NCBI GenBank assembly: GCA_040379205.1
Contig: JBEILM010000005.1
Coordinates: forward strand, 486-64,485
Direction: 5' to 3'
DNA length: 64,000 bases
DNA from: Gemmatimonas sp.
GTDB lineage: Bacteria; Gemmatimonadota; Gemmatimonadetes; Gemmatimonadales; Gemmatimonadaceae
Shown: positions 8,956 to 35,452 of the stretch, piece by piece
Position numbering within the stretch: position 1 is the first letter of the stretch
Layout of the letters: the number at the start of each line of letters is the position of its first letter
The notes under the pieces: model-generated
The model's database searches: none
The model's input: the letters and a program-made list of their open reading frames with translations, nothing else
Told to the model about the DNA's origin: nothing
Program-made: the position numbers and the translations under genes

Positions 8956-8963
8956 CGGGCAGC

Positions 8964-10529
<1,566 letters not shown>

Positions 10530-10651
10530 GGCGGCGGAAGCTAGCGCCCGGACGCGGAAAAACGAGGAGCCGGCCCCTTTCGGGACCGGCTCCGCTGCCG
10601 TGCTGGTGGGTGCGTCCCGTTCAGAAGGCCGGGGCGCCGCCACGGACGGCG

Positions 10652-16825: not shown

Positions 16826-17719
16826 TCAGACGGGCAGCCGGCCGGCCTGCTGCAGAATGTCGCGTACGGAAGCACGATGCGCCTCGGCCAGCGGCACCAG
16901 CGGCAGACGGAGCACCTCATCCATGCGACCCATCCAGGCGAGCATCGCCTTGGCCGGAATCGGATTCGATTCCACGAACGCCGCGTCGACGACAGGAGCG
17001 AGCGTGGCCTCGAGGGCTCGCGCGGTCGCCAGGTCCCCGCGCGACAGGGCGTCGTACAGCGCGGCCACCGCCCGCGGCATGACGTTGGACACCACGGAGA
17101 TGATGCCGTCTCCGCCGTGCGCCATGAGGGCGAGCGTAAAACCGTCGTCGCCGGCCAGCACGCTGAAGTGCTCGGGCCGGTCGCGAAGAATCGTGACCAT
17201 CTGTGCCAGACTGCCCGACGCTTCCTTCACCGCCACAAAGCGCGGATCGGCGGCGAGTTCCAAGCAGGTGCGCGCCTCGAGATTGACGGCCGTACGCCCC
17301 GGCACGTTGTAGAGCACGATGGGGAGCGCGCAGGCATCGGCGATGGCGCGAAAGTGCGCCATCAACGCACGCTGCGGCGGCTTGTTGTACATCGGCGTCA
17401 CGTGCAGCAGGTGCGTGGCCCCGATCGCCTGCATCTCGCGCGAGGTGGCGATCGCCTTCTGCGTGTCGTTGGAGCCGGCACCGGCGATCACCGGTACCCG
17501 CCCGTTGACCTGCTCCACCGTGATCTCCACCACGCGACGATGCTCGGCCGGCGTGAGGGTCACCGCTTCCCCTGTGGAACCGCAGGGGACGACCATGTGC
17601 ACCCCTTCGGCGAGCTGCCAGTCCACGAACGCGCGCAACGCGGGCTCGTCCAGCGACCCATCGGCGCGAAACGGCGTGACGAGGGCGGTTCCGCACCCGC
17701 GGAGTCGGATATTGGTCAT
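16826..17719 (-). CDS. dapA: 4-hydroxy-tetrahydrodipicolinate synthase
   Basis: ALVTPF, GSTGE, PMYNKP, LYNVPGRT, VAVKEASG, ESNPIPAK. Confidence 0.96.
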   Translation of the reverse strand: MTNIRLRGCGTALVTPFRADGSLDEPALRAFVDWQLAEGVHMVVPCGSTGEAVTLTPAEHRRVVEITVEQVNGRVPVIAGAGSNDTQKAIATSREMQAIGATHLLHVTPMYNKPPQRALMAHFRAIADACALPIVLYNVPGRTAVNLEARTCLELAADPRFVAVKEASGSLAQMVTILRDRPEHFSVLAGDDGFTLALMAHGGDGIISVVSNVMPRAVAALYDALSRGDLATARALEATLAPVVDAAFVESNPIPAKAMLAWMGRMDEVLRLPLVPLAEAHRASVRDILQQAGRLPV

Positions 17720-17728
17720 GACGGGCAC

Positions 17729-18442
17729 TCAGGCGGTGGCGGCGTCGCCACGGAGGAGGTCGCGCATGGTGTAGACCCCAGGGGCCCGTGGGGCTGCGAG
17801 CCAGCGCGCCGCGGCCAGGGCCCCATCGGCGAAGACCCGCCGGTCGCGCGCCTCGTGCACCAGCCGGATCTGCTCGAAGGGCGCATCGAGGATGACTTCG
17901 TGCGTGCCGGGGACGTCGCCCACGCGCACGCTGGTGATCGGCACCTGGTGCCCGAGACCGACCGCGAGGCATTCGCCGATCGCGAGGCCGGTGCCCGACG
18001 GGGCGTCCTTCTTCGCGGCATGATGCGTTTCCACCACGTGGCAGTCGAACCCCGCCACGTCACGCACCCGACGGGCGGCATCTTCCGCGAGGGCCAAAAA
18101 GAGCTGGACACCCAGCGAGAAGTTCGGTGACCAGAGCGCCGCGCCGCGATGGGTACGGACCGCCGCATCGAGCCGCGCGGCTTCGGCGTGCCACCCCGTG
18201 GTGCCCACCACGACGGGGCACCCGAGCGTTAACAGCGCCTCCGCATTGTCGAGCGCCGTTTCCGGTGTGGTGAATTCGATCGCGACCTGAGCGCCACCAA
18301 GATCGGTGAGGGTGAGGCCGCGCGTCATCTCGGGCGCATCGAGGCGCGCCACGACCGAGCACTCGCGCTCCGGCGCGAGCGCCTCGAGTGCGCGGCCCAT
18401 GCGGCCCATACCGACGAGCGCCACCTTCACGGGTGCGCTCAT
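17729..18442 (-). CDS. dapB: 4-hydroxy-tetrahydrodipicolinate reductase
   Basis: GMGRMG, VVGTTG, SPNFSLG, ETHHAAKKDAPSGT. Confidence 0.95.
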   Translation of the reverse strand: MSAPVKVALVGMGRMGRALEALAPERECSVVARLDAPEMTRGLTLTDLGGAQVAIEFTTPETALDNAEALLTLGCPVVVGTTGWHAEAARLDAAVRTHRGAALWSPNFSLGVQLFLALAEDAARRVRDVAGFDCHVVETHHAAKKDAPSGTGLAIGECLAVGLGHQVPITSVRVGDVPGTHEVILDAPFEQIRLVHEARDRRVFADGALAAARWLAAPRAPGVYTMRDLLRGDAATA

Positions 18443-19794: not shown

Positions 19795-20867
19795 GATCCG
19801 CGCAGCCCCGCCAACTGCCCGGTGGCCACGAGCAGCTCGGCGTTGAGGATCGATCCGCCGGCGGCTCCGCGCACGACATTGTGCGACATCGCCACCAGTC
19901 GCAGATCGAACAGATGGTCCTCACGGACGCGGCCCACCGTGGTGGCCATGCCACGCCCGGCATTCACGTCGCGCCGCGGCTGCGGACGGTCGAGCTCATC
20001 CCGAATGATCAGCGCCGGCTCCGGCGCCGAGGGGAGCCCGCGCACGGCGCTGTGTCCGGTCCACGCGCGCAGCACCTCGAGGGCCTGCGCCGGCGTCGGC
20101 TTTTGTGCAAACGCGACCGAGAGACACACGGTGTGTCCATGCTCGACCGGCACGCGATTGGCATGGGCGCTGGTCACGATGTCCGCATGCATCACCGTGG
20201 TCCCGTCGAAGGTGCCGAGCAGCTTGACCAGTTCGGTCTCGATCTTGGGCTCCTCGTCGCCGATGTACGGAATGACATTCCCGAGGATGTCGAGTGACGC
20301 CACACCTGGATAGCCGGCCCCGGAGACCGCCTGCATGGTGGTGGCGAACACCTTCGTCACCGTGAAGGCACGGTGCAGCGGCGCCAGCGCCGCCGCGATG
20401 ACGGTCACGGCACAGTTGGCGTTGGTGACGATGCCACCGCACCATCCGCGCACAGCCCGCTGATGCGCGAGCATGGCCAGGTGATCGCCGTTGACCTCCG
20501 GGATCACCAGCGGCACGTCCGGCGCCATGCGGTAGTTCTTGGCGTTCGACAGCACGAGCCGACCGGCCCGCGCAAAGGCGGCCTCGACCTCGCCGGCCAC
20601 GCCGGAATCGAGCGCCGAAAAGACGATCGGCGCCGTGACCTCATCGGGGGTGCAATTGCGCACGGGCAACGCGGCCACAGCGGACGGCAGCCGCCCCTCG
20701 AGCCAACGGGCGGCCTCCCGATACGGTTTGCCGGCGCTTCGCTCTGATGCGGCGACTTCGACGAGATCGAACCAGGGGTGCCCGTCGAGCGAGCGAATGA
20801 AGGCCTGTCCGACGGCACCGGTGGCGCCGAGGACGGCGACCGGCCAACGAGTGGCGGAGGTTGTCAT
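19791..20867 (-). CDS. asd: Aspartate-semialdehyde dehydrogenase
   Basis: VLGATGAVGQ, TNANC, QAVSGAG, NRVPVEHGH, HNVVRGAAG. Confidence 0.95.
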   Translation of the reverse strand: MTTSATRWPVAVLGATGAVGQAFIRSLDGHPWFDLVEVAASERSAGKPYREAARWLEGRLPSAVAALPVRNCTPDEVTAPIVFSALDSGVAGEVEAAFARAGRLVLSNAKNYRMAPDVPLVIPEVNGDHLAMLAHQRAVRGWCGGIVTNANCAVTVIAAALAPLHRAFTVTKVFATTMQAVSGAGYPGVASLDILGNVIPYIGDEEPKIETELVKLLGTFDGTTVMHADIVTSAHANRVPVEHGHTVCLSVAFAQKPTPAQALEVLRAWTGHSAVRGLPSAPEPALIIRDELDRPQPRRDVNAGRGMATTVGRVREDHLFDLRLVAMSHNVVRGAAGGSILNAELLVATGQLAGLRGS

Positions 20868-21856
20868 GCGAGCAGGGTGCGGACGATGCGGACGTAGGCG
20901 TCGACCGACGCCTCGAGTTCCGCCACATCGATGTACTCGATGGGCGTGTGCGCCACGTGGATGGAACCGGGCCCGAAGAGCAGCGGCGTGCCCCAGCGAT
21001 CAAGCAGCGGGATGTCGCTGGTGTAGGCCACCGGCGCGACGGCGAAGCCGTCGATCACGTGGAAGTGCTGCGCGGGAATGTGCGACCCCCACACGAGTTC
21101 GGCGCGATCGCCGGCCCAGGCGGTGAACGCCTGCTTCACCGGTGCCACGTCGCCCACGAGGCGGATCATGATCTCCGCTTCGGCCATCCCGGGCACGATG
21201 TTCGCCTCGGTACCGGCGCGGAGCACGCCGATGTTGTACGTGGTGGCGCCCAGGACGGGATCGACCGGCAACTGGAGGGTGCGCAACTCGGGGAGCATGT
21301 CGAGCAGCGGCTCGAGGGCGCTCTGCCCGAGATGGGCGTACGCCGAATGCGCCTCCCGGCCGCGCACGCGCACGATGACCCGCTGCGCCCCCTTTCCGCC
21401 CGAGGCGAGGGTGCTTTCGGTCGGCTCGCCATTGACGAGGAACCGGCTGGTGGCGGGCAGCCGGTTGGCGGCGCGCGCACCGGGCGAGCCCTTCTCCTCC
21501 CCCACCACATACAGCAGGTCGACGCGCTCCTCCCCTTCATCGGCGAGTCGCTGGGCCGCGATCATCATCGCGGCGGCGATGCTCTTGGCGTCGCACGCGC
21601 CGCGCCCGGAGAGCCGGCTCCCTTCGAGCCGAGGGGGAATGAAGGGGGGCACGGTGTCGAGGTGGGTGGACAGGGTGACCCCGCCCCCGCGCCGCTTGGC
21701 CCAGAGATTGGACCGGCCCGGTTCGACTTCCTGCAGGGAGACGTTCCACCCATGGCCGACCAGCCAGCGGGAGGCGAAGTCCACCGCCTCCCGCTCGCGG
21801 CCAGTGGTGGACTCGATGGACAGCAGTTCGGTGGCGAGGGCGACGACGTCGGACAT
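20864..21856 (-). CDS. M20/M25/M40 metallopeptidase (ArgE/DapE family), first gene of the dap operon
   Basis: THLDTVPP, GRGACDAK, VGEEKG, GEPT, GSIHVAHT. Confidence 0.85.
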   Translation of the reverse strand: MSDVVALATELLSIESTTGREREAVDFASRWLVGHGWNVSLQEVEPGRSNLWAKRRGGGVTLSTHLDTVPPFIPPRLEGSRLSGRGACDAKSIAAAMMIAAQRLADEGEERVDLLYVVGEEKGSPGARAANRLPATSRFLVNGEPTESTLASGGKGAQRVIVRVRGREAHSAYAHLGQSALEPLLDMLPELRTLQLPVDPVLGATTYNIGVLRAGTEANIVPGMAEAEIMIRLVGDVAPVKQAFTAWAGDRAELVWGSHIPAQHFHVIDGFAVAPVAYTSDIPLLDRWGTPLLFGPGSIHVAHTPIEYIDVAELEASVDAYVRIVRTLLA

Positions 21857-21923
21857 GGCGCACAAGATACAAGCATTGGCTCCCCGAGGGTCCCCCCCGC
21901 CGGGGATGCCGCTGCCTCCGCAC

Positions 21924-24900
21924 TTACACGGTGATGGCGAGCCCCCGGTAGATGCGGGCCTTGTACCGGCTGTGCACGGGCTCCGGCAGGGGCGCGCTGG
22001 CCAGCAGGACCGCGTGGGCGAACCGCTCCTGCTCCTCCGCCTGTTCGGCCGTGTCCCGCGGCTCCTCCGATCGAACCCGCCGGGTGAGGTTGATCTGGTT
22101 CACGGGGACGTTGTGCACGAGGCGCTCGTTCTCCATGCCGAGCGTGGCCGTGAGCGCATGCAGCGTCGTCTTCACGAAGTTGGCCAGCGCGAACTCGGCG
22201 TGGGTGGGCCGCACGGGCACGTCCGGCGACACGAGTACGAGGCGCACGTGGTCGAGCAACAATACCTTTCGGGCGATGCGGAGGTGATGGGTGAGATGCG
22301 CCTCGACGAGATCGGCGAAGCCGCCGGCGTCGAGCGCCGGCGTCCCGTCGTCCCGGAAGATCTGCGCCGGCAGGGGCGTGAACGGGGTGGAGACCACGGC
22401 GGCCGGCGCGCCGCCGGCGAGCAGCGCGCGGTCCATCCCTGCCTCGAGGTCGTCGCCGGTGACGATGTTCTCGATGCGTTCGGCGCCCAGCACGATGCGC
22501 AGCAGCGACTGCACATCGCGCCCCGCCTCGGCACTGCGCGTGAGCAGCATGATGCGCCCGACCTGGCTCTGCTCGAGGGCCAGCCGCGCCGCCCGCGCCA
22601 GGTGCGAAGTGAGATATTCGCCGATGAGCCAGATGGTCTGCCCGCGCATTTTGGCCACCCGTTCCGGCTTCGCCCGTCCGAACAGTTCGCGCTCGGTGAT
22701 GGCACGCTCCTGGTGCAGCCCCCCCGACGGTTGAAACGTCTCGCCGCTGACGGCCCGGTCACTCAGGAAGAACACGGTGGCCAGCGCCACCTCCACTTCG
22801 GTGGGCATGTTGCGCAGGTGGAGCATGCCCACGACGCCCTTGCCGATCTTCTCCGCCTCACGCGCGATTTCCCGCGCGGCGATGAACGGCGACGCCTCGG
22901 GCAGCGCGGCCAGCACCGCCGCGTCATTGCCCTGCACCAACCCGAGCAGCCCGTCGATGTCGGCGCCCTGCCGCAGCGCCTCGATGATGGCGGCGTATAC
23001 CGCATTCAGCCGACGGTTCTCGAGAAAAGCCGACCACGCCGCTCGAACAATCCGGGCTTCCCGCCCACGCTCCGCAGGCGGTTGCCGTCCACCGGCCCCG
23101 GCGCGATGGCGTTGACCTGAATCTCCGGGCCCACGATGCGGGCGAAGTTCTCGGTGATGGCGCGCTGGCCGGCCTTGGAGACGGCGTAGTCGGCACGATT
23201 CGGATACGGCACGGCCACGTACTTCTCGCCGCCGAAGTACGAGGACACGTTGAGGATGTAGCCCGTGCCCTGGCGCTTCATGATGGGCACGACCTTCTCG
23301 ATGAGCGAGTAGTTCGAGATGAGGTTTGCATTGAGCGTGGCGCGCCACGCGTCGATGTCCATATCGACTACCATCTGCTCAGCGCCGGCGACACCGGCGT
23401 TGTTGACGAGGTAGTCGATACGCCCGAACGCCTCCATCGTCGCCGCGACCGCGCGGCCGAGCGACGCTTCGTCGGCCACGTCGACATCGGCCAGCGTACG
23501 GACCCGGTCGAGGGCCCCGTTGTACCCGATGTCCTCCAGTTCGCGCACGATCCCGCTGCGCATCTCCTCGAGTTGGTCGGCACGGCGCGCCACGAGCATC
23601 ACACGCGCGCCGGCAATGGCGAGCAGGCGCCCCAACTGTCCGCCGATCCCCGCTGAGCCACCGGTAATGAGCGCCACCTTGCCCAGGTGCAGCCCCATCA
23701 GCGACTCCATCCACCCGAAGATGGCGCGCCGGGAGCCGGTCGCCTCGACGATGGATGCCGGCAGGTAGAGGTTGACCGGCCGAATGCGCCGCCGCGTGAA
23801 CAGCAGCCGCGCCGCCTGACCGGCGGCGAAGGGGACCTCTTCGGAATCGCGATTCCCCCACCGGATGATCTGGTTGGACCACTCCACGAAGGGGCGCTCG
23901 CCCGCCTGTTGCTGGGCATCCGATTCGTCGCGCCAGACGCGGCACAGCTCCTCCAACGCCCCGCGCAGCACGTCCGCATACACGTTGCCGTGCCCGTCAT
24001 CCCCATTCGACAGGAACACCACCCGCGGATCGGTGACCATGCCGGTCGGTTGCTGCCAGAGGCGAGTGAGGGCACGCGCCAGCGCCATCATGCCCGCGAT
24101 CTCGCCATCGAGGAAGGCCCCGACATCGCTGTCCGAGAGCGCCACGAAGTCGCCGCGGAAGCGCCACGCGCCGAACGCCGGCATGATGATCGCGCCGTGC
24201 AGCGTCTCCCCGTCTTCGCCTATCTCGCCGAAGAACGCCCGCACGGTGTCCTCACGCGAACGATCGAGCAGCGACACCCGGATGCGCTGGTCCACTGCGT
24301 CGAGACCAAGCGCGTCCTCGGCGGCACGCACGCTTTCCTCGCTGCCCAGCGTGAGCCGCACCTCGGCACCGCAGCTGGCCTGCACACGCGCCACGGCCAG
24401 GGCATCCGTCACCTGGTCACCAGCGGCCACCAGCACGCGCAGTCCGGATCCGTCCACGGTGCGCAGCTCGGGGCGCGACGCCCAGGTGCTCCGCGACTCC
24501 TGCCGCACACTCATGCCATGCGTGACTTCGAAGTTGTGCCCGTTGAGTGCCGCCGACTCGTCGCTGGCCAGAAACACAATCGTGTTGGCGACATCGGAGA
24601 CGGTGGGGAAGCCCTTCGTCGGCACCGTGGACTCCGTCGGCGCCTCCACCGGCGGCGGACCATCGGCCGCCGCCGCAATGCGCGCCAGCGCCGGATTGCG
24701 CGAGAGCGTCATCAGCCCCAGGAAATCCTCGGCCGTCGTGCCGGCAGCGACCTTGCGCAGGCCGTCCATGGCCGCGAATACAGTGCGGATACGGGGCGAT
24801 TCGATGGGACCGGGGAAGACGGTGTTCACCCGGATGCCGCGCGGCCCGAGCTGCGCGGCGAGCAGCCGGCTGAAGGTGTTGAGCGCGGCCTTCGGTACCA

Positions 24901-25522
24901 CATCGGCGGCCCGACTGTAGTACTGGGTACGCGAAAAGATAGTGGACACGTTGATGACCGACGCGCCCGCCTCGAGGTGAGGCGCCACTGCGCGGACCAG
25001 TTTCCACGCGAGCCCGAGAAGATTGCGCGCGGCGGCACCGACCGTCTCCGACTCCACCAGCCCGCGTTCGGCGAGGTGGGCCAGATCGGCGGCGTCGAAG
25101 GGCAGATCGAGCAGTCGGCACTTGGGCCCCGCAGTCTCGGCATTGTTCACCAGGATGTCGATGCGCCCAACGGTGGCAAGCAGCTGCGTGATCGCGCTGC
25201 GTACCTGACCGGGTTCGCCGGCGTCCATCGGCAAGACCACGATCCGGGACGCCGGCACGTGCAGCTCCTCGCGCAGTGCCGCACGAGCCGCATCGAGCCT
25301 GCGACGGTCACGCCCGGTCATCACCACGGTGGCGCCCTCGCGCAGGAACCGGCGCGTGATCCCGGTGCCGATGTTGCCGGCCGCCCCGGTGATGACGGCG
25401 ACCTTGCCCGCCAGCCGCCCGCGCGGCGCGCGTCGCCGCTCGCGGCCGGTTTCGGTCCCGGTCTCCGAAGCCACGGTGTCGCCGCCAGCGGTGGCCGTCT
25501 CGCCTGTCCGTCGTCCGCTCAT
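21924..25522 (-). pseudogene. mcr: Bifunctional malonyl-CoA reductase (Chloroflexus Mcr type), split by a 1-nt frameshift near 23025-23028
   Basis: ORF 23006-25522 has RLAGKVAVITGAAGNIG, VNTVFPGPIESPRIRTVF, LHLGKVALITGGSAGIGGQLGRLLA and YPNRADYAVSKAGQRA. The second frame continues LENRRLN...GETFQPSGGL...RIYRGLAITV, matching the recalled Mcr C-terminus. One added base gives a 1199-aa protein. Confidence 0.88.
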
Positions 25523-28500
25523 CGCTGCATCTCCTGTGCTGCCCAGGCTTCGTAGAGATGATCGACCGTGCGCAGCCCGAGCGCGGGCAACGCGTGATTC
25601 ACGACGTAGGTGGCACCGGTATGCCGATTGTCCCACATTGCCTGATGGGCCTCGGCCAGTCCCTCCCACGGTACCACGGTGGGAGTGGTGACTTCGAGCA
25701 GACCGGCATCCACCATCTCATTTATGCGGACCACCTCGTACGCGTTGCACAGGTGCGTACCGAGGATGCTGGCGGTTGGCATGAGGATGCGGCGCTGGCG
25801 TGTCCACACCTGAGGCGCATAGAAGCTGTAGCGGCGGTGGCGCATGTCCTCGAAGTACAGCACGCGACCAGTGAACGGCTGCACCAGCGACGTGGACACC
25901 GCGAGCGCATCGTGACCGGCGCGTTCGATGATCACCGACGGCGCGCCGCGCGGATTGTCCGCCGACCGGAGCACCCGGCCCACGGCGGAGCCGAACGGCT
26001 TCAGCGTATGCTCCTGAAAGGCCCGCACGGCGTCACGGAATGCCGCCGAGTCGCGCCGGACGTCGGGCAGCGACGGCATGGTCGGGGGCCACGAGAATTC
26101 ATCGCCCAGCCGGCGTCCCAGTTCCTCGAGCGCGATCATCCCACGAATGCGATCGCCGAAGCCCAGCGACTGGACGAACTCACGCTGCGCATCGGTGCGC
26201 GTCACGATGCAGCCACGCGCGCCGGCGGCAGCCACCGCCTCGATCGCCACCAACCCATCCGGATCGACCAACTCCCCCTCGGGCAACCCGACGCCGTAGT
26301 ACACGAGCGCCGCCTCACCCGCGCGCACCGCAGCACGACGCAACATGGCGTCGGGAGCCACGGCGCCCGGCTTGCCCACGAACGTGAAGTGGTACCCCGA
26401 CGAGGCGCCATAGAAGGTGAGCGCCCCGCCCTCCTCCAGCAGCTGGAAGCTCCGCGGGAACGCACGCTCGCCGGCATGCGACACCACATAATCGGCCAGG
26501 TGACCGTCATGCTGCGCACGAAAGGCAGCGCTGAGCGCGTCGCCCTCCGCCTCCCACACCGCGATCGCCTCGGCTCCCTCCGGCACCATGCGGAACGCCG
26601 AGGCCCACGAGGGATCGGCACGATTCAGGAAGCCACGCCCACCGAACGACGTCACCACCGCACCACGTGCCTCGCTGGACACGAGACCGGTGACGGCGCA
26701 TCCGTGTTGCGAGGCCGCCTTGAGCGCCTCGAGGCCCGTGCCCGTGGCAGCGCCCTCCACCAGAATGGTGCGCCCCGGCTCGACGCGTAGCGTCGTGAAC
26801 AGGGCGCGCACGATGGTGCCGAGGTTCAGGATGTATGAACCGGCCGCCTCCAGCGAGAGGTCCTGCGGCACTGGATGCAGCTGTGGCGCCTGCACGGCGA
26901 GGAACTGCTGATGGCTGCCGGTGCGCGACTCGTATCCCTGGATGCGGAAGTCTGCCGACATTGGATCGCGGGCCGCGAACGGGGACAGCAGCGCGCTCTG
27001 CCCACTGTAGACGGCCACCAGGTCGCCCACACGCAGCCGCCCCTCGGCCTTCGCTTCGCTGCCGAGCGCCGCCACGAGCCCTACGCCGCCGGAGCCGGTG
27101 ACCTGCCAATCCTGATCGTGATTGTCGAACGGCGAAACCGGAATGCCGGTGATAGCCCAGATGTCGTTGAAGTTCACCTCCGACGCCAGCATGTACACAA
27201 GGGCTTCGTTCGGCGAGGGCGTGTCCACCGGAACCAGCAGCTCGTGCTCCACCTCGGCGGGTAACCCGTGCCGGGGCGCACCCGTCTCCGGGTCGCGCAC
27301 GACGCCCTGCCCCAATTGCCACGCCGGAATGGGGGTGACGCCGGGATAGAACGGCGCGCCCACCGGCAGCAGGTCGCCGCGGGCGATCAGGTCGGCGCGA
27401 CGGTCGCTGCCCACGACCTGCCGCCGTGTGGGGAGCGGCGCGCTGCGCCGATCGAAGAAGGCGCGGATGCCCGCCTTACCCCCGGCCGGATCGACGACGG
27501 CTTCGGCGAAGAGCCGCGCCTCACGGGCGAGGCCGGCGGTGAGACCGTCACGCCAGCCCGTGCGCACGGCATCGAGGATGCGCCCGGTGGCCCCCGCGCG
27601 ACCGACCCGCTCCGCCTGGGCCAGGAGTCGGGTCACCGGCGGGAGCGCCAACAGCCCTTCGACGTCGAGGTGCCCCGCCGCATCCCACGCCCGCCGCCGC
27701 TCGGCGACCGTCGCCATATGGCGTCCGAACGTCGTCCGGCCTTCCTCTGCGAGCCACTCGCGCACCAGGGCCGCGGCGCGCGCTACCGCATCGTCGCTGC
27801 CGGACACCACCTCGTCGATGACACCGGCGGCCAGCGCCTCGGTGGCATCGAGCTGCCGTCCACCCAGGATGATCTCCATGGCCTGCACGAATCCCTCGGC
27901 GCCATCGCGATCGGCGAGCAGTCGCGTGAGGCGCTGCGTGCCACCATAGCCCGGCAGGAGGTTGAGTCGAATCTCCGGCTGCCCGAACACCGCCACCGGC
28001 TCGGCGATACGATAGTGACAGGCCAGCGCGAACTCGAGACCACCCCCGAGCGCCACACCGTTGATGGCCGCGACACAGGGTTTGCCCATGCGTTCGATCA
28101 TGCGGAATGCCAGATGCGCCACATTGGGAAGCGGTAGCGCCTCCTCCAGCGTGTGCACGTCCTCCAGCAACTGCCGCACATCGGCGCCGGCCACGAACGA
28201 GCTGTTGCCGCCGCCGGTGAAGAGCACCGCGCGCACATCCTCCTGTCGCGACAGGTGCTCCACTACCGTGCACAACTCGTCGAGCGCCCGCTCGTTGAGC
28301 GCATTGACCGGCGGGTTGCTGACCGTGACCACGGCCAGCCGCGCGCCCGGCTGCAGCGTGTGGTAATGCACCCGGAAGTAGCGCCACGACACGAGCACCC
28401 GTTGCGCCTCGCTGATGCGCTGCACCGCCTGCCACTGCCCGATCACCTGCGCCAGTGCCGGAATGCTCTCGGGATTGCGCAGGGTGGTGGTGTCCCCGAT

Positions 28501-30981
28501 GGATTCACCGTCGACCAGGGCCCGCACCATGCGGCGCATGTACTTGCCACTGCGGGTTTCGGGAAACGCGGCCACCTCGAGAAACTCCTCGGGCACGGCC
28601 ACGGCGCCCTTCTCCTGCCGTACCAGTTCGGTGAGACGGCGACGGTCGTCCATGGTGATGCGACGGCCGGCGGCGGGCACGACGAAGGCCAGCGGCGTCA
28701 GCCCCTTCTCGCGATGCGGCGCCCCCACCACGATGACGTTGCCCACCGGGGAGTCGGGGTTGACCTGCTTGTCGCGCAGGATGGCTCCCTCGATCTCCTC
28801 GGTGCCCATGCGATGGCCGCTGACGTTGATCACATCGTCGCTGCGGCCGTGCAGCGAGAAGCTGCCATCGGCATGACGGATGGCCACATCGCCCTGCGTG
28901 TAGGCCCACGCCCCCTGCCAGCGCGCCCAGTAGGTGGCGCGGTAGCGCTCGGCGTCACCTCGCCACGAGGGAACCACACTGCCGTCGGTGACCTGAAAAC
29001 CGTCGGCGTCTCCCCAGATGGTGCGCGCCAGGTAGGGATAGGGTGCCTGGATGACGATCTCACCCTTTTCACCATCCGCCGCCCGTCGTGACGGCAGCCG
29101 GCCTGCGGCGTCGGGCTCGCCTGCAGGGATCCATACATCCCCGTCAACCCACGGCAGCGGATAGGTGTGCGCATCCGGCCGCAGCGGGAACGCCGCATTG
29201 CCAAAGAAGTGCGTCCATACGATGCCGCCGTGCTCGGTGGCCCAGTACGAGTTGATGTACTGTGGACACAGATGATCCATCCCGAACTGCTGCACGGCCA
29301 GTGACACCGGCTCGGCGCAGAAGGTCGCCACGCGCAGGCCGCTCACGTCGTGGCGACGCACGTCCTCGAGGTTCTGCGGATCGGTCATCACCGACTTGAG
29401 GAACGTGACCCCCGCCTTGAAGATCGTTACGCCATACCGCTCGATGATGGACGCGAACCGGCCGGCACTCGGAAAGACGGGCGCGCCCTCGGCCAACATC
29501 GACGTGACGCGCGTCGCCAGCGCGGCGGCAATCATGTACGACTGTCCCGTGATCCACCCCGGATCGGCCACCACGTACATCACATCACCGGGGCGCGCAT
29601 CGAACGCCACGCGCATGGTGTGCGACACACCGGCCAGCCAGCCACCGTGCACGTGCACTACGCCCTTCGGCTTCCCGGTCGAACCGGACGTGTAGATGAA
29701 GAACAGTGGAAACTCGGCATCGACCGGGCGTGGCGGCACCACCCGCCAGATCTCGCGCACAAGCGATGCATCGTCGAGTGCGCGCAGGGCGTCGACGCCG
29801 CGAACCACGCTGCCGGCCGCCTGCAGCTGCGCAAGCAGCTCCGCATCGGCGTCGGCCAGGAGCTCGTGCGCCCACCGATCGCGACCGGCACGCCACGGGA
29901 CATCCGCCTGCCCGGTATGTCGTACCACCACGACGTGCTCCACCGCACTGGTGACGCCGACCAGTGCCCGCGCGCACCCCGTACGCGCCGCGCTCGCGCT
30001 CGCGGCGTCGAGCACACCGGAGTCCACGTGCGCCGCCAGCGCGCGCCCCACGCCGCGCATGACATCGCTGCGTTCCACAGTGATCTCGCCGGAAAGGGCG
30101 CGCGTCACCTCGTCGGTGAGGCGCGTGCGCGCGTCGTCGGTGAGGCCGAGCGCCACCGCTGCTTCGCGCACCGCCGCTACAGCCCGCGGCACCGGGACAT
30201 ACCGATCGAGTGCCGGATCGGTGTATGCCGCCTTGAACGGCACGATCTGCGCGTTGCGATAGCCGCCATCGGCGGTGATGACCACGCGCGCCCCGGCATC
30301 GCACACGCGATCGGCCAGCGTCTTGTCGGAGAAGCCGCCGAAGACGGGCGTGTAGACAATGCCCAGCCGCTTGGCGGCCTCCGTCCACGCGACCTGCTCC
30401 GGAATGTTCGGGAGGTTGAGCGCGATGCGGTCGCCCGTGCGGAGGCCAAGGCGACGCAGGGCGATGGCGCATCGGGCAACTTCGAGGAGCAGGTCGCGCC
30501 GAGTCCAACGCCACGCGACGACGGGCCCACCGCGCCCGCCATCGAGCGACTGGTCCCAGCGATCGCCTTCCACGAAAAACGCTGCCTCTGCTCCATGGCC
30601 CGCGAGCACGTGGCGATCCACTTCGTTGAAGCAGGCGTTCGTGCGGGCGCCCACGAACCAGCGATAGTTCGGCGGATCCGCGTCGTCGAACGCGAGCGAC
30701 CACGGGGAGAAGTCGGCCTCGGCCGACCAGCTGACGGGGCCACCCGTGCGCCCATCGTATCCGCGCCAGGCGCCGTCCGCATCGCGCGTCAACCAGGCCT
30801 GCGCCGCCGGCACGTACCAGTGCAGCATCTCGGCGGCGATCGCACCATGCCAGCCTCCCGGATCGCGCTGACAGGCGTCACGTATCGTGTGCCAGTCGTC
30901 GCCGGTGCGAATGGGGTTGGCAACGACAGGAGCGGCGTGGTCCGGGGACATGCCCGGAACCGATCGCGGAGTCACGGTCAT
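25519..30981 (-). CDS. pcs: Trifunctional propionyl-CoA synthase (3-hydroxypropionyl-CoA synthetase / dehydratase / acrylyl-CoA reductase)
   Basis: 1820 aa. ACS domain (YTSGSTGKPKG, YWATEHGG, ETRSGKYMRR), crotonase domain (GGGLEFALACH, QPEIRLNLLPGYGGTQRL) and Ecr/MDR domain (SEVNFNDIW, GAATGTG, GTHLCN). N-terminal NPIR...W..HGAIA and EGDRWD..GRGGPVV match recalled Pcs. Confidence 0.95.
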   Translation of the reverse strand: MTVTPRSVPGMSPDHAAPVVANPIRTGDDWHTIRDACQRDPGGWHGAIAAEMLHWYVPAAQAWLTRDADGAWRGYDGRTGGPVSWSAEADFSPWSLAFDDADPPNYRWFVGARTNACFNEVDRHVLAGHGAEAAFFVEGDRWDQSLDGGRGGPVVAWRWTRRDLLLEVARCAIALRRLGLRTGDRIALNLPNIPEQVAWTEAAKRLGIVYTPVFGGFSDKTLADRVCDAGARVVITADGGYRNAQIVPFKAAYTDPALDRYVPVPRAVAAVREAAVALGLTDDARTRLTDEVTRALSGEITVERSDVMRGVGRALAAHVDSGVLDAASASAARTGCARALVGVTSAVEHVVVVRHTGQADVPWRAGRDRWAHELLADADAELLAQLQAAGSVVRGVDALRALDDASLVREIWRVVPPRPVDAEFPLFFIYTSGSTGKPKGVVHVHGGWLAGVSHTMRVAFDARPGDVMYVVADPGWITGQSYMIAAALATRVTSMLAEGAPVFPSAGRFASIIERYGVTIFKAGVTFLKSVMTDPQNLEDVRRHDVSGLRVATFCAEPVSLAVQQFGMDHLCPQYINSYWATEHGGIVWTHFFGNAAFPLRPDAHTYPLPWVDGDVWIPAGEPDAAGRLPSRRAADGEKGEIVIQAPYPYLARTIWGDADGFQVTDGSVVPSWRGDAERYRATYWARWQGAWAYTQGDVAIRHADGSFSLHGRSDDVINVSGHRMGTEEIEGAILRDKQVNPDSPVGNVIVVGAPHREKGLTPLAFVVPAAGRRITMDDRRRLTELVRQEKGAVAVPEEFLEVAAFPETRSGKYMRRMVRALVDGESIGDTTTLRNPESIPALAQVIGQWQAVQRISEAQRVLVSWRYFRVHYHTLQPGARLAVVTVSNPPVNALNERALDELCTVVEHLSRQEDVRAVLFTGGGNSSFVAGADVRQLLEDVHTLEEALPLPNVAHLAFRMIERMGKPCVAAINGVALGGGLEFALACHYRIAEPVAVFGQPEIRLNLLPGYGGTQRLTRLLADRDGAEGFVQAMEIILGGRQLDATEALAAGVIDEVVSGSDDAVARAAALVREWLAEEGRTTFGRHMATVAERRRAWDAAGHLDVEGLLALPPVTRLLAQAERVGRAGATGRILDAVRTGWRDGLTAGLAREARLFAEAVVDPAGGKAGIRAFFDRRSAPLPTRRQVVGSDRRADLIARGDLLPVGAPFYPGVTPIPAWQLGQGVVRDPETGAPRHGLPAEVEHELLVPVDTPSPNEALVYMLASEVNFNDIWAITGIPVSPFDNHDQDWQVTGSGGVGLVAALGSEAKAEGRLRVGDLVAVYSGQSALLSPFAARDPMSADFRIQGYESRTGSHQQFLAVQAPQLHPVPQDLSLEAAGSYILNLGTIVRALFTTLRVEPGRTILVEGAATGTGLEALKAASQHGCAVTGLVSSEARGAVVTSFGGRGFLNRADPSWASAFRMVPEGAEAIAVWEAEGDALSAAFRAQHDGHLADYVVSHAGERAFPRSFQLLEEGGALTFYGASSGYHFTFVGKPGAVAPDAMLRRAAVRAGEAALVYYGVGLPEGELVDPDGLVAIEAVAAAGARGCIVTRTDAQREFVQSLGFGDRIRGMIALEELGRRLGDEFSWPPTMPSLPDVRRDSAAFRDAVRAFQEHTLKPFGSAVGRVLRSADNPRGAPSVIIERAGHDALAVSTSLVQPFTGRVLYFEDMRHRRYSFYAPQVWTRQRRILMPTASILGTHLCNAYEVVRINEMVDAGLLEVTTPTVVPWEGLAEAHQAMWDNRHTGATYVVNHALPALGLRTVDHLYEAWAAQEMQR

Positions 30982-31819: not shown

Positions 31820-33628
31820 TCACTCCCGGACGCCGAGGGCGTGCGAGGCGTACCAGAGCGTGTAGGCAAGCAGGCCGGCCAGTGCGGCGTCTCCGCCGTT
31901 CCCCACCGCTCGTCCCTCGCCGTCGACCCGCTCGGCGGCGATCCCCTGGTCGAGCGGAGCGCGGCGGAGCCAGCTCATGACCTCCTGCGCTTCCGGCCCG
32001 AGGAGTCGGGCGAGCTGAGGCAGCAGCGGCCCGACGTCTCCGGCCGGCGGACGAACCGCCCGCACCGTGCGGCGGTAGAGCGAGTCATCGCGATCCATGG
32101 CCTCGTAGAGCGGCAGCCACAGCAGCGACCCCACCGTGTCATCATCGAGCGCGGTGCCACCGGCGAGGTCCACCGCTGTGGCCAGACGCGCTTTCTCACC
32201 GCGTTCGACCGCGAAATGGCGACGGATCGCCGCCCGCACCGCCGCCGGGTCTTCGACGCCCGCAGCCGCCTCCTCGTCGAGCGTCCGTCGGAACACGTCG
32301 AGGGCCATCGCCACGACGGCGTTGCCATGGAGCGTGAACGGATGGGTCGCCGGGGCTCCGGACGGCGTGACTTCGGTGGAGTAGAGCGGCAGCCGCTCGT
32401 CACGCCGGGCGTGGATGTCGTCCGACGCCAGGTACAGCGTGTCTGCCACGACCGGGTCCTCCACGATCTGACCGTCTTCCGTATCGCGAATGTACCGGTC
32501 GGTGGCAATGGCGAAGGCCGCCGGCCCCTCGAGCGAAAAGCCGGGCTGGAAGAGCGTGCCGTCGAAGTAGTTCACCCCCTGCCCCGGCGCGTACCCGTGC
32601 AGTTCACAGGCCCGCACGAGCAGCTCCCGCGCCAGACCGGAGTCCGCCAGTTGCACCGCCGGCAGGGTCCACATGAGGGCGTCCCAGTCACGCACGGTAC
32701 ACCCCATGCCATGCCACGGGGCACGCGACCGCATGAGGTAGTAGTGCGCATCGTCGAGCCCGCGGCCCACCCCGTAGAAGTAGGCGAACAGCAGGTTGCG
32801 ATTCAGGATGCGGTCCATGCCGTCACTACCCGTGGACTGCTCGAGACCGGTCAGCGCCTCGCGCGTGGCGGTCAGCAGCGCACGCCAGCCACGGCGGCGC
32901 AGGACTCCGACCGTGGCCTGCGCGCCGTCGCGCTCGGGTCCGACGGCCAGATAGAACGCCGTCTGTACCGAGCCGCCCGCCGGCGCCACGAGGGCCCGGC
33001 GAATGGCGAACGGGCGCGGCTCGCGTGACGCCCCGTCGGCCACCTCGAGCGCCGCCGGTCCATCGCAGCCGACCGCCACCGCCACGAGCCCGGGAATGGC
33101 CGCCCCTTCGAGCAGGATGATGCCGTCGTCGGTGCGACTGACCACGTGTTCGTCGTCGAACGGCCGCGCGGTGCGCACCCGCTGCTGGCGGTGGCCCAGC
33201 GTTCCCTCGAGCGCCACTTCCACGCTCACGTCGCTGCCGCCACGATTCTCGATGGCGAAGGTGTAGACGGCTCCGGCCATGTCGGCATCACGGCCGTACG
33301 GCGCGAAGATGGTGCCGCGCACCACCAGCGACCCGATCGTGCAGGTGAACGTCGGCAGCCAGCCCACCGCACGCTCCCACGCGATTCCCTCGGCCGCGAG
33401 CGCTCGGACTTCCCCGCCCACCCGCAACACCGGCCCAATCAGCGGGGTACCCTGTCCCGACAGGAACCCCGGCGACCCCGCCATTTCGATCGCGGCGCGG
33501 GCGCCACGATGCAGCACCCCCAGCGCGTGGATCGACCCGTCTGCCGGATGGATGCACGGGAGGGTCAGCCAGTGGTTGCCGGTGAGCTGCCAGGGAACCG
33601 ACGGAAGGGGCACCATGTGAACGGTCAT
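31820..33628 (-). CDS. Cytoplasmic six-hairpin (alpha/alpha)6 glycoside hydrolase-like protein, GH125-like
   Basis: NRNLLFAYFY, RDWDALMWTLPAVQLAD, YFDGTLFQPGF, HPFTLHGN, GSLLWLPLY, GIAAE resemble recalled long GH125-type proteins. The first ~380 aa of the 986-aa ORF are antisense to the neighbouring gene. Confidence 0.55.
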   Translation of the reverse strand: MTVHMVPLPSVPWQLTGNHWLTLPCIHPADGSIHALGVLHRGARAAIEMAGSPGFLSGQGTPLIGPVLRVGGEVRALAAEGIAWERAVGWLPTFTCTIGSLVVRGTIFAPYGRDADMAGAVYTFAIENRGGSDVSVEVALEGTLGHRQQRVRTARPFDDEHVVSRTDDGIILLEGAAIPGLVAVAVGCDGPAALEVADGASREPRPFAIRRALVAPAGGSVQTAFYLAVGPERDGAQATVGVLRRRGWRALLTATREALTGLEQSTGSDGMDRILNRNLLFAYFYGVGRGLDDAHYYLMRSRAPWHGMGCTVRDWDALMWTLPAVQLADSGLARELLVRACELHGYAPGQGVNYFDGTLFQPGFSLEGPAAFAIATDRYIRDTEDGQIVEDPVVADTLYLASDDIHARRDERLPLYSTEVTPSGAPATHPFTLHGNAVVAMALDVFRRTLDEEAAAGVEDPAAVRAAIRRHFAVERGEKARLATAVDLAGGTALDDDTVGSLLWLPLYEAMDRDDSLYRRTVRAVRPPAGDVGPLLPQLARLLGPEAQEVMSWLRRAPLDQGIAAERVDGEGRAVGNGGDAALAGLLAYTLWYASHALGVRE

Positions 33629-33680
33629 CACGACTGCGCGGCGAGGAATCCTGATCGGGGAGCGCGCGTCGCCAGTTGCG

Positions 33681-33709
33681 TTGACGCACCTCCGGAGCAG
33701 GGCTAATCT
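33681..33709 (+). promoter_or_regulatory. Sigma70-type promoter of the 33761 gene; -10 overlaps an opposite-strand -10
   Basis: TTGACG(33681-33686)-N17-TAATCT(33704-33709); the minus strand reads TAGATT at 33710-33705. Confidence 0.7.
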
Positions 33710-33760
33710 AGCCGGTTCGGTTCGAATCGGTCGTCTCTCGGATCCCCGTCCCCACTCGTC

Positions 33761-35452
33761 GTGCCCCCTGCGTCCATAGGCCGTCCCGTTCTGCCGCGCG
33801 TTCGCGTCCGATGGATGCTTCCCGCCGTCTCCGCGCTGCTGGGGGCCGCGTGGTCCGGCGCCGGCGCCCAGGCCGTGGCCGGTGTCGGCGATGACGCGAT
33901 TCCGCTCCCCAAGGGCGGCTATCGCTTCCTGATCTCGGGACTCTGGAACGATTACGACGCCGTGTTCCATCCCGCGGGCGGCGGCGCGCGTCGGCCGCTG
34001 CTCGCGGCACTGGCCACGCCGTCGCTCGGGACCGACTTCCTGCCCCAGCTGACCAACGCGCAGGCCGGCATTCGGGCCCTGTCCGGGGAGTCCACCTTCG
34101 CCCTCTCCCTCGGGACCCTGGACGCGTCGGGCGCCGTACGCCAGAGCATCGCCCCGATCGCGGTGGATTACGGCGTCACCCGCCGCGTGTCGGTGCGTCT
34201 GCTGGTGCCGTACGTCGAATCGCGCGACGCCACGCAACTGCTGCTCAATCGGACCGGAGGCACCGCAAATGTCGGCGCCAATCCGGCCTTCGGCGCGACC
34301 ACCGGCGCCCAGGCGCGGACGGCCAACGGCGCCCTCGTGTCCCAGATCGAACAGGCACGCACTCGTCTCAGCGCAGAGCTGGCGCGGTGCGCCGATCTGA
34401 ATGCCACCGGATGCGAGGCCATCCGTGCCAACCCGGCTGGAGCGCAGGCGCTCCTCACCCGCGCGCAGGAGACGCGCACGAATCTCGTCACCGTGTATGG
34501 CGATGCCACCCGTGGCGGCTCTCCGGTGGTGCCCATCAACGGGTCCGCGGTGCACGCCGGCGTGGTCTCCACCATCGGCGCTCTGCGGACCGACTTCAAC
34601 GCGTACGGCATCACGTCCATCTCGGCCACCGCGCCCGCCGGCGCCACTACCATCTACGGGCCCGCCGGCATGCCGATCGTCGCCTCCGACTCGGCGTTCG
34701 GCGTCGGCTATGCGCGCATCGGTGACACCCGCCGAGCGGGCATCGGCGACATCGACCTGAGTGCGACCGTGCTGCTGCACGACACCTTCGGCGCCGATCA
34801 GGTGCGCCGACTGCTCACCCCCACGCGTGGATTTCGCAGCGCACTCACGGTGGGCTGGCGATTCGGCACCGCAGGCGCGGACCGCACCGAGGATCCGTTC
34901 GACGTCCCGATCGGCGACGGGGCCAACGCCCTGCTGCTGCGCACCACCACCGACTTCATCATTTCACGCCGGGCCTGGGTGAGCGCGACGATCCGCGCGG
35001 TTCAACCGGTCGGTGATCGCGTGGCGATGGTGGTCCCTCTCCGCGACGAAGCAGCCACGTTCGGCGGGCCGCTGACGGTGGGCGATGCAGCCCGCACCCT
35101 CGGGACCCGACTCGATGTGGAGGTCGCGCAGCGGCTAGCGCTGGGTCAGTTCTTCGGTGTGTCCGGCGGACTCCTGCTGCGCCGCTGGGGCGCCGATCGC
35201 TACGCCCCGTCGGCCACCGACGCCGACGCCCCGGCGCCCGCCGCGGTGGAGGTGGAGGCGCGCACGCTGCGGGCGGCGGCTTTCGGCGTGACCTTCTCCA
35301 CGCTGGCCAGCTACGCGCGCGGCCGCTCGCGCTTCCCGGCCGAGGTCATCTACACGCACACCATGGCACTCGGAGCCTCGGGCGGGGCGATCCCGGCCGT
35401 GGCCTCCGATCGCCTCGAACTGCGCGTCTACACGGGCTTCCCGCGGCGCTGA
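33761..35452 (+). CDS. Hypothetical exported protein, possible outer-membrane beta-barrel
   Basis: Signal peptide (AGA|Q), alternating amphipathic strands, C-terminal LELRVYTGF; preceded by a canonical promoter. Confidence 0.7.
   Translation: MPPASIGRPVLPRVRVRWMLPAVSALLGAAWSGAGAQAVAGVGDDAIPLPKGGYRFLISGLWNDYDAVFHPAGGGARRPLLAALATPSLGTDFLPQLTNAQAGIRALSGESTFALSLGTLDASGAVRQSIAPIAVDYGVTRRVSVRLLVPYVESRDATQLLLNRTGGTANVGANPAFGATTGAQARTANGALVSQIEQARTRLSAELARCADLNATGCEAIRANPAGAQALLTRAQETRTNLVTVYGDATRGGSPVVPINGSAVHAGVVSTIGALRTDFNAYGITSISATAPAGATTIYGPAGMPIVASDSAFGVGYARIGDTRRAGIGDIDLSATVLLHDTFGADQVRRLLTPTRGFRSALTVGWRFGTAGADRTEDPFDVPIGDGANALLLRTTTDFIISRRAWVSATIRAVQPVGDRVAMVVPLRDEAATFGGPLTVGDAARTLGTRLDVEVAQRLALGQFFGVSGGLLLRRWGADRYAPSATDADAPAPAAVEVEARTLRAAAFGVTFSTLASYARGRSRFPAEVIYTHTMALGASGGAIPAVASDRLELRVYTGFPRR

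Follow-up and report, generated by a model that had tools for sequence, protein, structure and literature searches.

The window, a 64,000-nucleotide stretch of a Gemmatimonas contig, carries an intact pcs gene and, next to it on the same strand, what appear to be the remains of mcr, the gene for malonyl-CoA reductase, the pair lying between two conserved flanking genes (Table 1). A first-pass annotation made from the letters alone had read the upstream gene as a complete 1820-aa fusion of acyl-CoA synthetase, crotonase and reductase whose TGA overlaps the following ATG, and both points were confirmed, the ATGA lying at 25522-25519. Pfam places PF16177/PF00501/PF13193, then PF00378, then PF00107/PF13602 along the single polypeptide, giving the order acyl-CoA ligase, enoyl-CoA hydratase and enoyl-CoA reductase, the last of the Zn-ADH type. 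Residues 27-1817 are colinear with residues 26-1843 of the Erythrobacter sp. NAP1 enzyme (PDB 6EQO; 2410.6 bits), which, like the Pcs of Chloroflexus aurantiacus, shares the three-domain fusion over its full length. In a tree of 66 Pcs sequences aligned with MAFFT the window protein groups with true Pcs and not with stand-alone acyl-CoA synthetases or CCR, as the first reading required; it falls in a Gemmatimonadota clade (support 98) that is separate from, and sister to, the Sphingomonadales clade, with Chloroflexaceae outside. Its identity to Sphingomonadales Pcs is 60-63%. Judged by domain order, alignment and phylogeny, the protein is a true propionyl-CoA synthase, orthologous to the characterised enzymes. 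The 5.46-kb gene contains no stops or frameshifts in its translation and, in the Pcs alignment, F1407L is the sole change among 389 universally invariant columns, and a conservative one. Outside the bacteria, haloarchaeal loci carry pcs without mcr within 8 kb, an arrangement compatible with stand-alone use of the gene.

Table 1. The pcs-mcr locus, its flanks and the lesions in mcr (positions in the window)
Feature	Position	Strand	Basis
M20 peptidase (DapE-like), downstream flank of the pcs-mcr site	20864..21865	-	Pfam, synteny
mcr pseudogene (predicted), 3' part: rest of extra domain and SDR4 in shifted frame, ending RIYRGLAITV	21924..23027	-	Translation, PdMCR-C match
Junction of 204-nt (68-codon) in-frame deletion in the alpha-helical lid/extra domain of MCR-C	22884..22904	-	DNA alignment, PDB alignment
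mcr pseudogene (predicted), 5' part: 838-aa ORF, SDR1-SDR2-SDR3, frameshift-induced stop	23006..25522	-	Translation, PDB alignments
mcr frameshift site cggCTTTTCtcgag, 1-nt deletion	23025..23029	-	Sequence and DNA alignment with 10 relatives
mcr codon 207, GAT: Asp for the catalytic Tyr of SDR1 YxxxK (Y207D)	24902..24904	-	Alignments
mcr codon 129, GAG: SDR NNAG to NNAE (G129E)	25136..25138	-	Gly in 12/12 relatives
pcs, propionyl-CoA synthase, 1820 aa, intact	25519..30981	-	ORF/translation, Pfam, PDB 6EQO match, tree
Conserved 986-aa gene, no Pfam match, upstream flank of the pcs-mcr insertion site	31820..34780	-	Synteny

The same chromosomal site houses pcs-mcr in at least nine Gemmatimonas species. 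The 986-aa flanking gene is 58-81% identical at the same position in 10 Gemmatimonad loci, and the M20 gene opens an asd-lysC-dapB-dapA-dapD block; in pcs-negative congeners the two flanks stand 0.9 kb apart, the site being empty in two of the six examined. In all relatives mcr lies directly downstream of pcs and is translationally coupled to it. The gene is uninterrupted, at 1249-1271 aa, in 12 Gemmatimonad genomes (the 10 complete loci, among them that of G022, listed as L076, together with G015 and G019), and in about 50 non-Gemmatimonad loci it was recovered as a single full-length HSP. Both the Pcs tree and synteny place the genome in Gemmatimonadota, in agreement with the origin first suggested, and the lineage is Gemmatimonas. 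Contamination of the contig or mis-binning was rejected, since the flanks match Gemmatimonas loci at 58-88% identity, with gene order conserved.

The window resembles Erythrobacter NAP1 in having mcr next to pcs on the same strand, but here the second gene appears to be dead. The first-pass annotation had described a single multi-SDR protein ending RIYRGLAITV; a frame with that ending does close at 21924, but the protein is not one ORF, as a stop at 23006 ends it after 838 aa. Indeed, the interval 25522..21924 spans 3599 nt, which is no multiple of 3. The family assignments of both genes nevertheless stood, resting on matches to PDB 6EQO for Pcs and to 8HI4, 8HJW and 6K8S for Mcr. Homology to the bifunctional MCRs of Chloroflexus (8HJW), Roseiflexus (8HI4) and Porphyrobacter dokdonensis (6K8S) runs along SDR1-SDR2-SDR3 and SDR4. 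The 5' part matches RfxMCR over residues 6-803 and CaMCR over residues 4-791 (769 bits to 8HI4), and the 3' part scores 368 bits against PdMCR-C (6K8S), in an alignment that skips PdMCR-C residues ~303-367, and is 84% identical to residues 932-1265 of G015 Mcr; overall, identity to congener Mcr is about 80%. Compared with the three solved enzymes, however, the window gene encodes a split polypeptide with a frameshift, lacks 68 lid residues and reads Asp for the SDR1 Tyr and NNAE for NNAG. The SDR1 motif is DVVPK where YVVPK or YVTPK is found elsewhere, and in alignments to both solved full-length MCRs position 207 corresponds to CaMCR Tyr171 and RfxMCR Tyr178. Y207D and G129E both hit columns that are invariant in the 12 Gemmatimonad relatives and the two solved structures. 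At the frameshift all relatives read CTN-ATY-CTC (R-L-I-L-E-N) and cggCTTTTCtcgag is one base short; the 204-nt deletion is flanked by imperfect repeats (LPDAP... / MPEPPEPF), and in a DNA alignment with 10 relatives both deletions are unique to the window. The 5' part retains the SDR3 catalytic residues (Ser, YxxRxxY and Lys) and the loop Arg, the segments 'nvssyfggek..pypnradyavskagqra' and 'gnrlr' aligning to CaMCR Ser719, Tyr731, Arg734, Tyr737, Lys741 and Arg773. The equivalent of the extra-domain Arg799 is also kept, the frameshift falling four residues past it. The MCR literature stresses the mechanistic importance of the SDR1 triad, of Arg799, which binds malonyl-CoA, of SDR4 Arg1164 and of the lid. 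In the RfxMCR study, Tyr178 is given as the SDR1 proton donor, and the triad Thr165-Tyr178-Lys182 was mutated to Ala and activity assayed (PMC10470521). By its lesions the window mcr is a pseudogene descended from a bifunctional Mcr of the SDR1-SDR2-SDR3-ED-SDR4 family; it should be emphasized that this assignment is made because of the specific lesions and not a rate signal, the overall dN/dS of mcr not being raised. The rest of the genome holds no second mcr, the other matches being generic SDRs at most 38% identical.

The lesions were cross-checked by exact-protein look-ups in other assemblies and comparison of the assembled contigs. Two Logan contigs span all three main mcr lesions with no gaps against the window, ERR9973197 at 3 SNPs and SRR8256178 at 14, and the NCBI assembly GCA_050043615.1, at 7 SNPs and likewise gapless, covers just the frameshift and lid-deletion sites. 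At the frameshift site none of these three contigs (L114, L119 and L121) has a gap against the window. The SNP differences argue that these assemblies represent distinct haplotypes and, since the three main lesions recur in assemblies with up to 0.4% sequence divergence, the lesions are real and not assembly errors. Codon 129 is polymorphic: where the window haplotype has NNAE, that of SRR8256178 (L119) retains NNAG, within NNAGTAGP and with a mismatch to the window at 25137; Y207D is present in this haplotype too. Exact-protein look-ups of the M20 protein and of a 418-aa CoA transferase in other assemblies returned no match, probably reflecting differences in called start codons.

The glyoxylate-branch genes are absent from the window, as had been noted at the outset, and mcl, mct and mch are not intact anywhere in the genome, which is 99.8% complete. 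These genes encode malyl-CoA/beta-methylmalyl-CoA/citramalyl-CoA lyase (mcl), mesaconyl-CoA C1-C4 transferase (mct) and mesaconyl-C1-CoA hydratase (mch). In the congeners G015 and G019 the branch is encoded by a cluster with the order CoAT-CoAT-mct-mcl-mch; on the corresponding contig of this genome (C67) the two CoATs remain, mct and mch are missing and mcl is broken into three pieces. Here 17 nt stand in place of the 1.49-kb mct, and the mcl relic (17172-17861 of that contig) is frameshifted and internally deleted, with a 353-nt gap, and is followed by a DoxX gene. Genome-wide, no mct (TIGR04253) was matched at E<=1e-60, a profile on which 12 congeners score 655-706 bits; no intact mcl was found, the next-best PF03328 match scoring 43 bits; and G015 Mch gave no tblastn match at 1e-5. 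Contigs from Logan, JGI 3300042866 and NCBI, 99.6-99.9% identical, bear the same scar. Sequence comparison thus indicates that mct and mch are deleted and mcl is pseudogenised in this species. The two family-III CoA-transferase genes left on the contig, candidates for succinyl-CoA:malate CoA transferase (smtAB), are 80% identical to the G015 cluster genes; they are mostly intact in appearance and without an obvious role, and the first has no clear start codon. Of the 18 Pcs-positive congeners in the genus, 12 carry both mct and mcl, and mch is present in each of the two clusters that were read completely; G022, G082 and G091, the last being the sister species, hold intact pcs-mcr and no glyoxylate branch.

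The search for phototrophy and methylmalonyl-CoA mutase genes that the first-pass annotation had advised found pufLM on contig C7 and a PF01642 match of 747 bits. Carboxyltransferase and biotin carboxylase genes lie within the window, and a second carboxyltransferase adjoins the mutase on contig C6; with PF01039 matches of 665 and 446 bits, these are carboxylase and mutase candidates assigned by family only. The Calvin cycle was rejected as an alternative means of autotrophy, the only RuBisCO-family match, at 167 bits, looking like form IV.

We consider it very likely that the locus is a remnant of the 3-hydroxypropionate (3-HP) bi-cycle in a phototrophic Gemmatimonas, with mcr dead, the glyoxylate branch decayed and pcs retained intact and alone. 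The pcs gene would still be under constraint, and mcr would recently have turned into a pseudogene through loss of the SDR1 catalytic Tyr, a 1-nt deletion expected to truncate the protein and a 68-codon deletion that would strip much of the lid; the change from NNAG to NNAE would be a further mutation segregating in the population. The glyoxylate-branch cluster would have decayed in parallel, mct and mch being lost, mcl broken and two CoA-transferase genes left behind. It follows from the lesions in mcr and the glyoxylate branch that the organism would be unable to make 3-hydroxypropionate from malonyl-CoA or to run the bi-cycle; it is almost certainly incapable of malonyl-CoA reduction and of regenerating acetyl-CoA from glyoxylate. 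Survival of pcs most likely reflects assimilation of 3-hydroxypropionate or acrylate: by itself, Pcs could convert either compound, taken from outside, to propionyl-CoA, which the carboxylase and methylmalonyl-CoA mutase of the genome would carry on to succinyl-CoA. Assimilation by this route would be heterotrophic, with one bicarbonate co-fixed.

It could be argued that pcs is functionless too and has merely escaped a hit so far, the entire locus being a relic. The decay is indeed recent: neither lineage-unique changes at invariant mcr columns nor pairwise dN/dS exceed those of other long-branch relatives, and this lack of a rate excess we read as recent inactivation of mcr. In pairwise comparison with the sister L035, mcr has a dN/dS of 0.105 and pcs one of 0.111, the latter being about twice the 0.05 of the L058-L059 pair (complete-cycle species at the same dS), which could mean some relaxation. 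The CoA transferases described above, likewise mostly intact and without an obvious role, also fit a relic. Against this, pcs has no disabling lesion in its 5.46 kb, whereas mcr and the mct-mcl-mch stretch have about 1 per kb (three fixed lesions in 3.8 kb and at least four in 3.3 kb, respectively), a difference with a P of about 0.005 by a crude Poisson estimate. The single conservative change in the 389 invariant columns also speaks against a relic, the haloarchaeal pcs loci are compatible with stand-alone use, and we regard a wholly functionless locus as unlikely.

It is less probable still that the split mcr works as two polypeptides, of 838 aa and about 337 aa, or that malonate-semialdehyde reductase activity survives in the 838-aa product. 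MCR-N and MCR-C halves have been expressed separately in the literature, and all of SDR1-SDR2 as well as the SDR3 catalytic residues lie within the 838-aa ORF. The break, however, falls inside MCR-C, between SDR3 and the extra domain, away from the N/C boundary; SDR4 Arg1164 and the lid would be on the other chain or missing, the Tyr that serves as SDR1 proton donor is replaced by Asp, and no obvious start for the 3' frame lies close to the break, the ORF as called beginning ~30 codons downstream. Programmed frameshifting was rejected, there being no shift at the site in any relative and the other lesions being incompatible with function.

The first-pass annotation had proposed a working Mcr-Pcs route in which acetyl- and propionyl-CoA carboxylation would take acetyl-CoA and two bicarbonates to succinyl-CoA. 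Both genes are of the right families and overlap in an ATGA as in Erythrobacter and other Gemmatimonas, the carboxylases and mutase are present, and the three congeners with pcs-mcr alone provide a precedent. Such an operon is nevertheless hardly credible here, as Y207D, the frameshift and the lid deletion are reproduced in other assemblies and there is no other mcr to take over, and the proposed route is not supported. Equally implausible is that sequencing or assembly introduced the frameshift (T4 for T5 in a homopolymer) into an mcr that is truly one ORF: the sequence here is a short run of T, MAGs may contain consensus errors and the overall dN/dS of mcr is low, but the site is gapless and identical in the ERR9973197, SRR8256178 and GCA_050043615.1 contigs, the relatives have no T5 run in their CTN-ATY-CTC, the housekeeping genes on either side can be aligned from end to end in a single frame, and restoring the frame would leave Y207D and the lid deletion in place.

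The bi-cycle is not new to this order. Garritano et al. (2022, PMC9802188) described all of its genes in two MAGs of Gemmatimonadales, and bi-cycle genes in Gemmatimonadales were reported again in a 2026 survey, so that any claim of novelty for pcs-mcr in Gemmatimonadota is weakened. The 2022 MAGs, of the same phylum, have complete sets, whereas the species described here has neither mct nor mch and has apparently pseudogenised mcl and mcr. In being a phototrophic heterotroph without the glyoxylate branch, the window genome resembles Erythrobacter NAP1, Porphyrobacter, Blastomonas and the congeners G022, G082 and G091; these partial-module phototrophs keep an intact mcr, however, and the window genome appears one step further on, with pcs only and the scars of the lost branch.

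These comparisons raise the possibility, which we put forward tentatively and rate at somewhat below even, of an ordered dismantling of the bi-cycle within freshwater phototrophic Gemmatimonas, from the complete cycle to pcs-mcr only and then to pcs only, this species alone showing the scars of both steps. If so, Pcs alone would be selectable in aerobic anoxygenic phototrophs, through scavenging of 3-hydroxypropionate or acrylate, and the partial modules scattered through other phyla would be remnants of loss and not products of piecemeal gain. Adjacent signature genes, pcs and mcr, do not by themselves make a pathway; because homology matches outlive lesions, marker-gene surveys based on pcs, or on mcr (K14468) and mcl, may score this species as a carrier of the bi-cycle. 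At the fixed chromosomal site the genus offers a series, from the full cycle (the 12 of 18 Pcs-positive congeners) through pcs-mcr only (n=3) and pcs only, as here, to the empty site (two of six pcs-negative congeners), with which to examine what part of the bi-cycle photoheterotrophs gain from keeping.

The first-pass annotation described the propionyl-CoA synthase (Pcs) as a complete fusion of acyl-CoA synthetase, crotonase and reductase, and this is borne out by the uninterrupted open reading frame, by the order acyl-CoA ligase, crotonase, Zn-ADH-type reductase in a Pfam domain search, and by the end-to-end alignment of the product with the solved enzyme of Erythrobacter sp. NAP1 (PDB 6EQO; 2410 bits, residues 27-1817 against 26-1843). 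The reported overlap of the pcs stop codon with the start of the following malonyl-CoA reductase gene, mcr, also stands (cgATGAgc at 25522-25519; ATG 25522-25520, TGA 25521-25519). The closest relatives of the protein (67-87% identity) are without exception from Gemmatimonadales or Gemmatimonas MAGs, with Sphingomonadales next at 60-63%. A tree of 66 Pcs sequences places the window protein within a single Gemmatimonadota clade (support 98), to which the Sphingomonadales clade is sister and the Chloroflexaceae lie outside. Its partner in the tree is the protein of L035, a locus of the congener G091 (C7:654321-675798), which is also the closest in identity (86-87%) despite a different chromosomal context, as none of the window's flanking genes occurs within 8 kb of that pcs-mcr pair. 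Three haloarchaeal loci (L047, L056 and L074; Natronomonas and Natronococcus) encode full-length Pcs homologues (54-56% identity) with mcr absent within 8 kb. The pcs-mcr pairs of L084, L030 and L046, labelled Synechococcus, Acidovorax and Hydrogenophaga, are near-identical to Erythrobacter or Blastomonas copies, probably because bins or cultures were contaminated or the genes were transferred very recently.

Features of the pcs-mcr locus and its surroundings, in window coordinates
Feature	Position	Strand	Description
pcs, propionyl-CoA synthase	25519-30981	minus	1820 aa
mcr 5' ORF	ATG 25522 to stop at 23006	minus	838 aa, ending ...FERRGRLFSRTVG*
986-aa protein gene	31820-34780	minus	58-81% identity across Gemmatimonas; always adjoins pcs or the empty site
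Biotin carboxylase and carboxyltransferase, adjacent	7429-10643	minus	508 aa and 559 aa (PF01039, 665 bits); 11 kb downstream of mcr

The multi-SDR protein encoded by mcr had been taken as the intact operon partner of Pcs, a view that the reading frame contradicts. The mcr stretch (25522..21924, minus strand) comprises 3599 nt, which is no multiple of three, and beyond the premature stop the C-terminal homology, ending RIYRGLAITV, runs on in a different frame. All Gemmatimonad comparators, namely the congeners G015, G019 and G022 and ten Gemmatimonad loci of the species collection (one of which, L076, is a G022 contig), contain a single unbroken mcr of about 1250-1270 codons directly after pcs, and at some 50 loci from other phyla the mcr match is a single full-length HSP. 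The frame is lost through a 1-nt deletion, the window reading CTTTTCTC (23029-23022) where relatives have CTN-ATY-CTC (R-L-I-L-E-N). This frameshift splits SDR3 from SDR4 and lies four residues past the counterpart of Roseiflexus Arg799; PMC10470521 describes Arg799 as a malonyl-CoA-binding arginine of the extra domain, and Arg1164 as supplied by SDR4. Some 40 codons downstream, mcr has also lost 204 nt (68 codons), with a pair of imperfectly repeated motifs, LPDAP... and MPEPPEPF, on either side of the junction (22904-22884). In the Porphyrobacter MCR-C construct the missing part spans approximately residues 303-367, within the helical lid (extra) domain, the closure of which controls catalysis. 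Codon 207 is GAT (24904-24902), giving DVVPK against YV(V/T/A)PK in both solved full-length enzymes and in 12/12 Gemmatimonad relatives. The residue lost is the catalytic tyrosine of SDR1, the proton donor of its triad, and the triad was probed with alanine mutants (PMC10470521). At codon 129 (window 25137) the NNAG motif reads NNAE.

An assembler or homopolymer artefact as the source of these lesions is excluded by gapless matches in distinct haplotypes. When the exact truncated products (838 and 337 aa) were looked up in public assemblies, both were present on contigs from Logan ERR9973197 and Logan SRR8256178, and the 337-aa product on a contig of NCBI GCA_050043615.1. These contigs align to the window without gaps but differ from it at 3, 14 and 7 positions, respectively, and thus represent distinct haplotypes. 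All three contigs cover the frameshift and the lid deletion; only the two from Logan extend to Asp207. G129E is polymorphic: ERR9973197 shares NNAE with the window, while the SRR8256178 haplotype keeps NNAG, indicating that this substitution arose later and segregates in an mcr that had already been inactivated.

The glyoxylate branch of the bi-cycle is similarly scarred. In G015 and G019 its cluster consists of one or two family-III CoA transferases, mct (TIGR04253, 680-695 bits), mcl (PF03328, 93-95 bits) and mch (PF19315, G015 copy). The window's own genome (a MAG of 5.06 Mb, 507 contigs, 99.8% complete; the window is C5:486-64485) keeps both CoA transferases on contig C67 (80% identity), where 17 nt stand in place of the 1.49-kb mct and mcl persists as three pieces (residues 1-76; 76-137 in another frame; then, after a 353-nt gap, 256-347); mch has no match whatever in this genome. 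The mct-mcl scar recurs on Logan, JGI 3300042866 and NCBI contigs at 99.6-99.9% identity. The first CoA-transferase gene (C67 14640-14800; about 2640-2800 in locus L115) may also be start-less, a further lesion: no usable ATG, GTG or TTG was found upstream of its conserved N-terminal motif, the sole candidate GTG being followed four codons later by TAG.

Judged from its genes, the organism is thus shown to be without a functional malonyl-CoA reductase and without a glyoxylate branch, so that neither the bi-cycle nor the proposed route from acetyl-CoA and two bicarbonates to succinyl-CoA can run. The identities given to Pcs and Mcr hold; the function ascribed to them in this genome does not. 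Pcs would instead turn 3-hydroxypropionate taken up by the cell, or acrylate by way of the CoA ester, into propionyl-CoA, which propionyl-CoA carboxylase, an epimerase and methylmalonyl-CoA mutase would convert to succinyl-CoA, the net outcome being photoheterotrophic assimilation with one bicarbonate co-fixed. The genome carries pufL and pufM, and a methylmalonyl-CoA mutase gene on contig C6 adjoins a second carboxyltransferase gene. The biotin carboxylase-carboxyltransferase pair in the window is a predicted acyl-CoA carboxylase, and its carboxyltransferase is also present in G019, on the contig that bears mcr. Such a Pcs-only route would be in keeping with the proposal that partial cycles serve co-assimilation (Zarzycki and Fuchs 2011, as cited in PMC9802188).

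Inactivation of mcr is recent, since comparison of the window copy with that of the sister L035 gives a pairwise dN/dS of 0.105, equal before and after the frameshift (pcs 0.111; dS about 0.8), and lineage-unique changes at invariant Mcr columns (24/741) are no more numerous than in another long-branch relative. Of 389 universally invariant columns, Pcs has changed at one, conservatively, and its 5.46-kb gene has no disabling lesion against about one per kb in mcr together with the mct-mcl-mch stretch (crude Poisson P about 0.005). This speaks for continued selection on pcs. Even so, the dN/dS of pcs is double the value for a comparable species pair with the complete cycle.

A complete gene complement for the bi-cycle was reported in 2022 in two Gemmatimonadales MAGs (PMC9802188), and a 2026 preprint again places freshwater Gemmatimonadota among carriers of the mcr and mcl markers; the pcs-mcr operon as such is therefore already known. 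What is new is its decayed state and the series of pathway states within one genus. Pcs occurs in 18 of 81 sampled genomes, and in 12 of these it is accompanied by mct and mcl. G022, G082 and G091 (each at least 93% complete) have pcs, with mcr intact where read, and none of mct, mcl or the cluster CoA transferase. The intermediate, scarred state was seen, among the sampled genomes, only in that of the window. At least nine Gemmatimonas species share the order dxs-nadK-recN-(986-aa gene)-pcs-mcr-M20 peptidase-asd-lysC-dapB, and two pcs-negative congeners have an empty site, with 0.9 kb between the M20 gene and the 986-aa gene, whose product has no Pfam match. The closed 5.3-Mb Gemmatimonas genome G086 has pcs, mct and mcl together with a strong RuBisCO large-subunit match (404 bits, C1:608975-609868), and may hold two carbon-fixation gene sets in one organism; the only RuBisCO-family match in the window's genome scores 167 bits (C18). 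The uncultured Gemmatimonadaceae MAG L015 (1-8583), which branches at the base of the Pcs clade, has mct, mcl and mch immediately upstream of pcs on the same contig. This supercluster is more compact than the arrangement in other Gemmatimonas genomes, in which the two groups sit on different contigs or, in closed G086, about 0.7 Mb apart.
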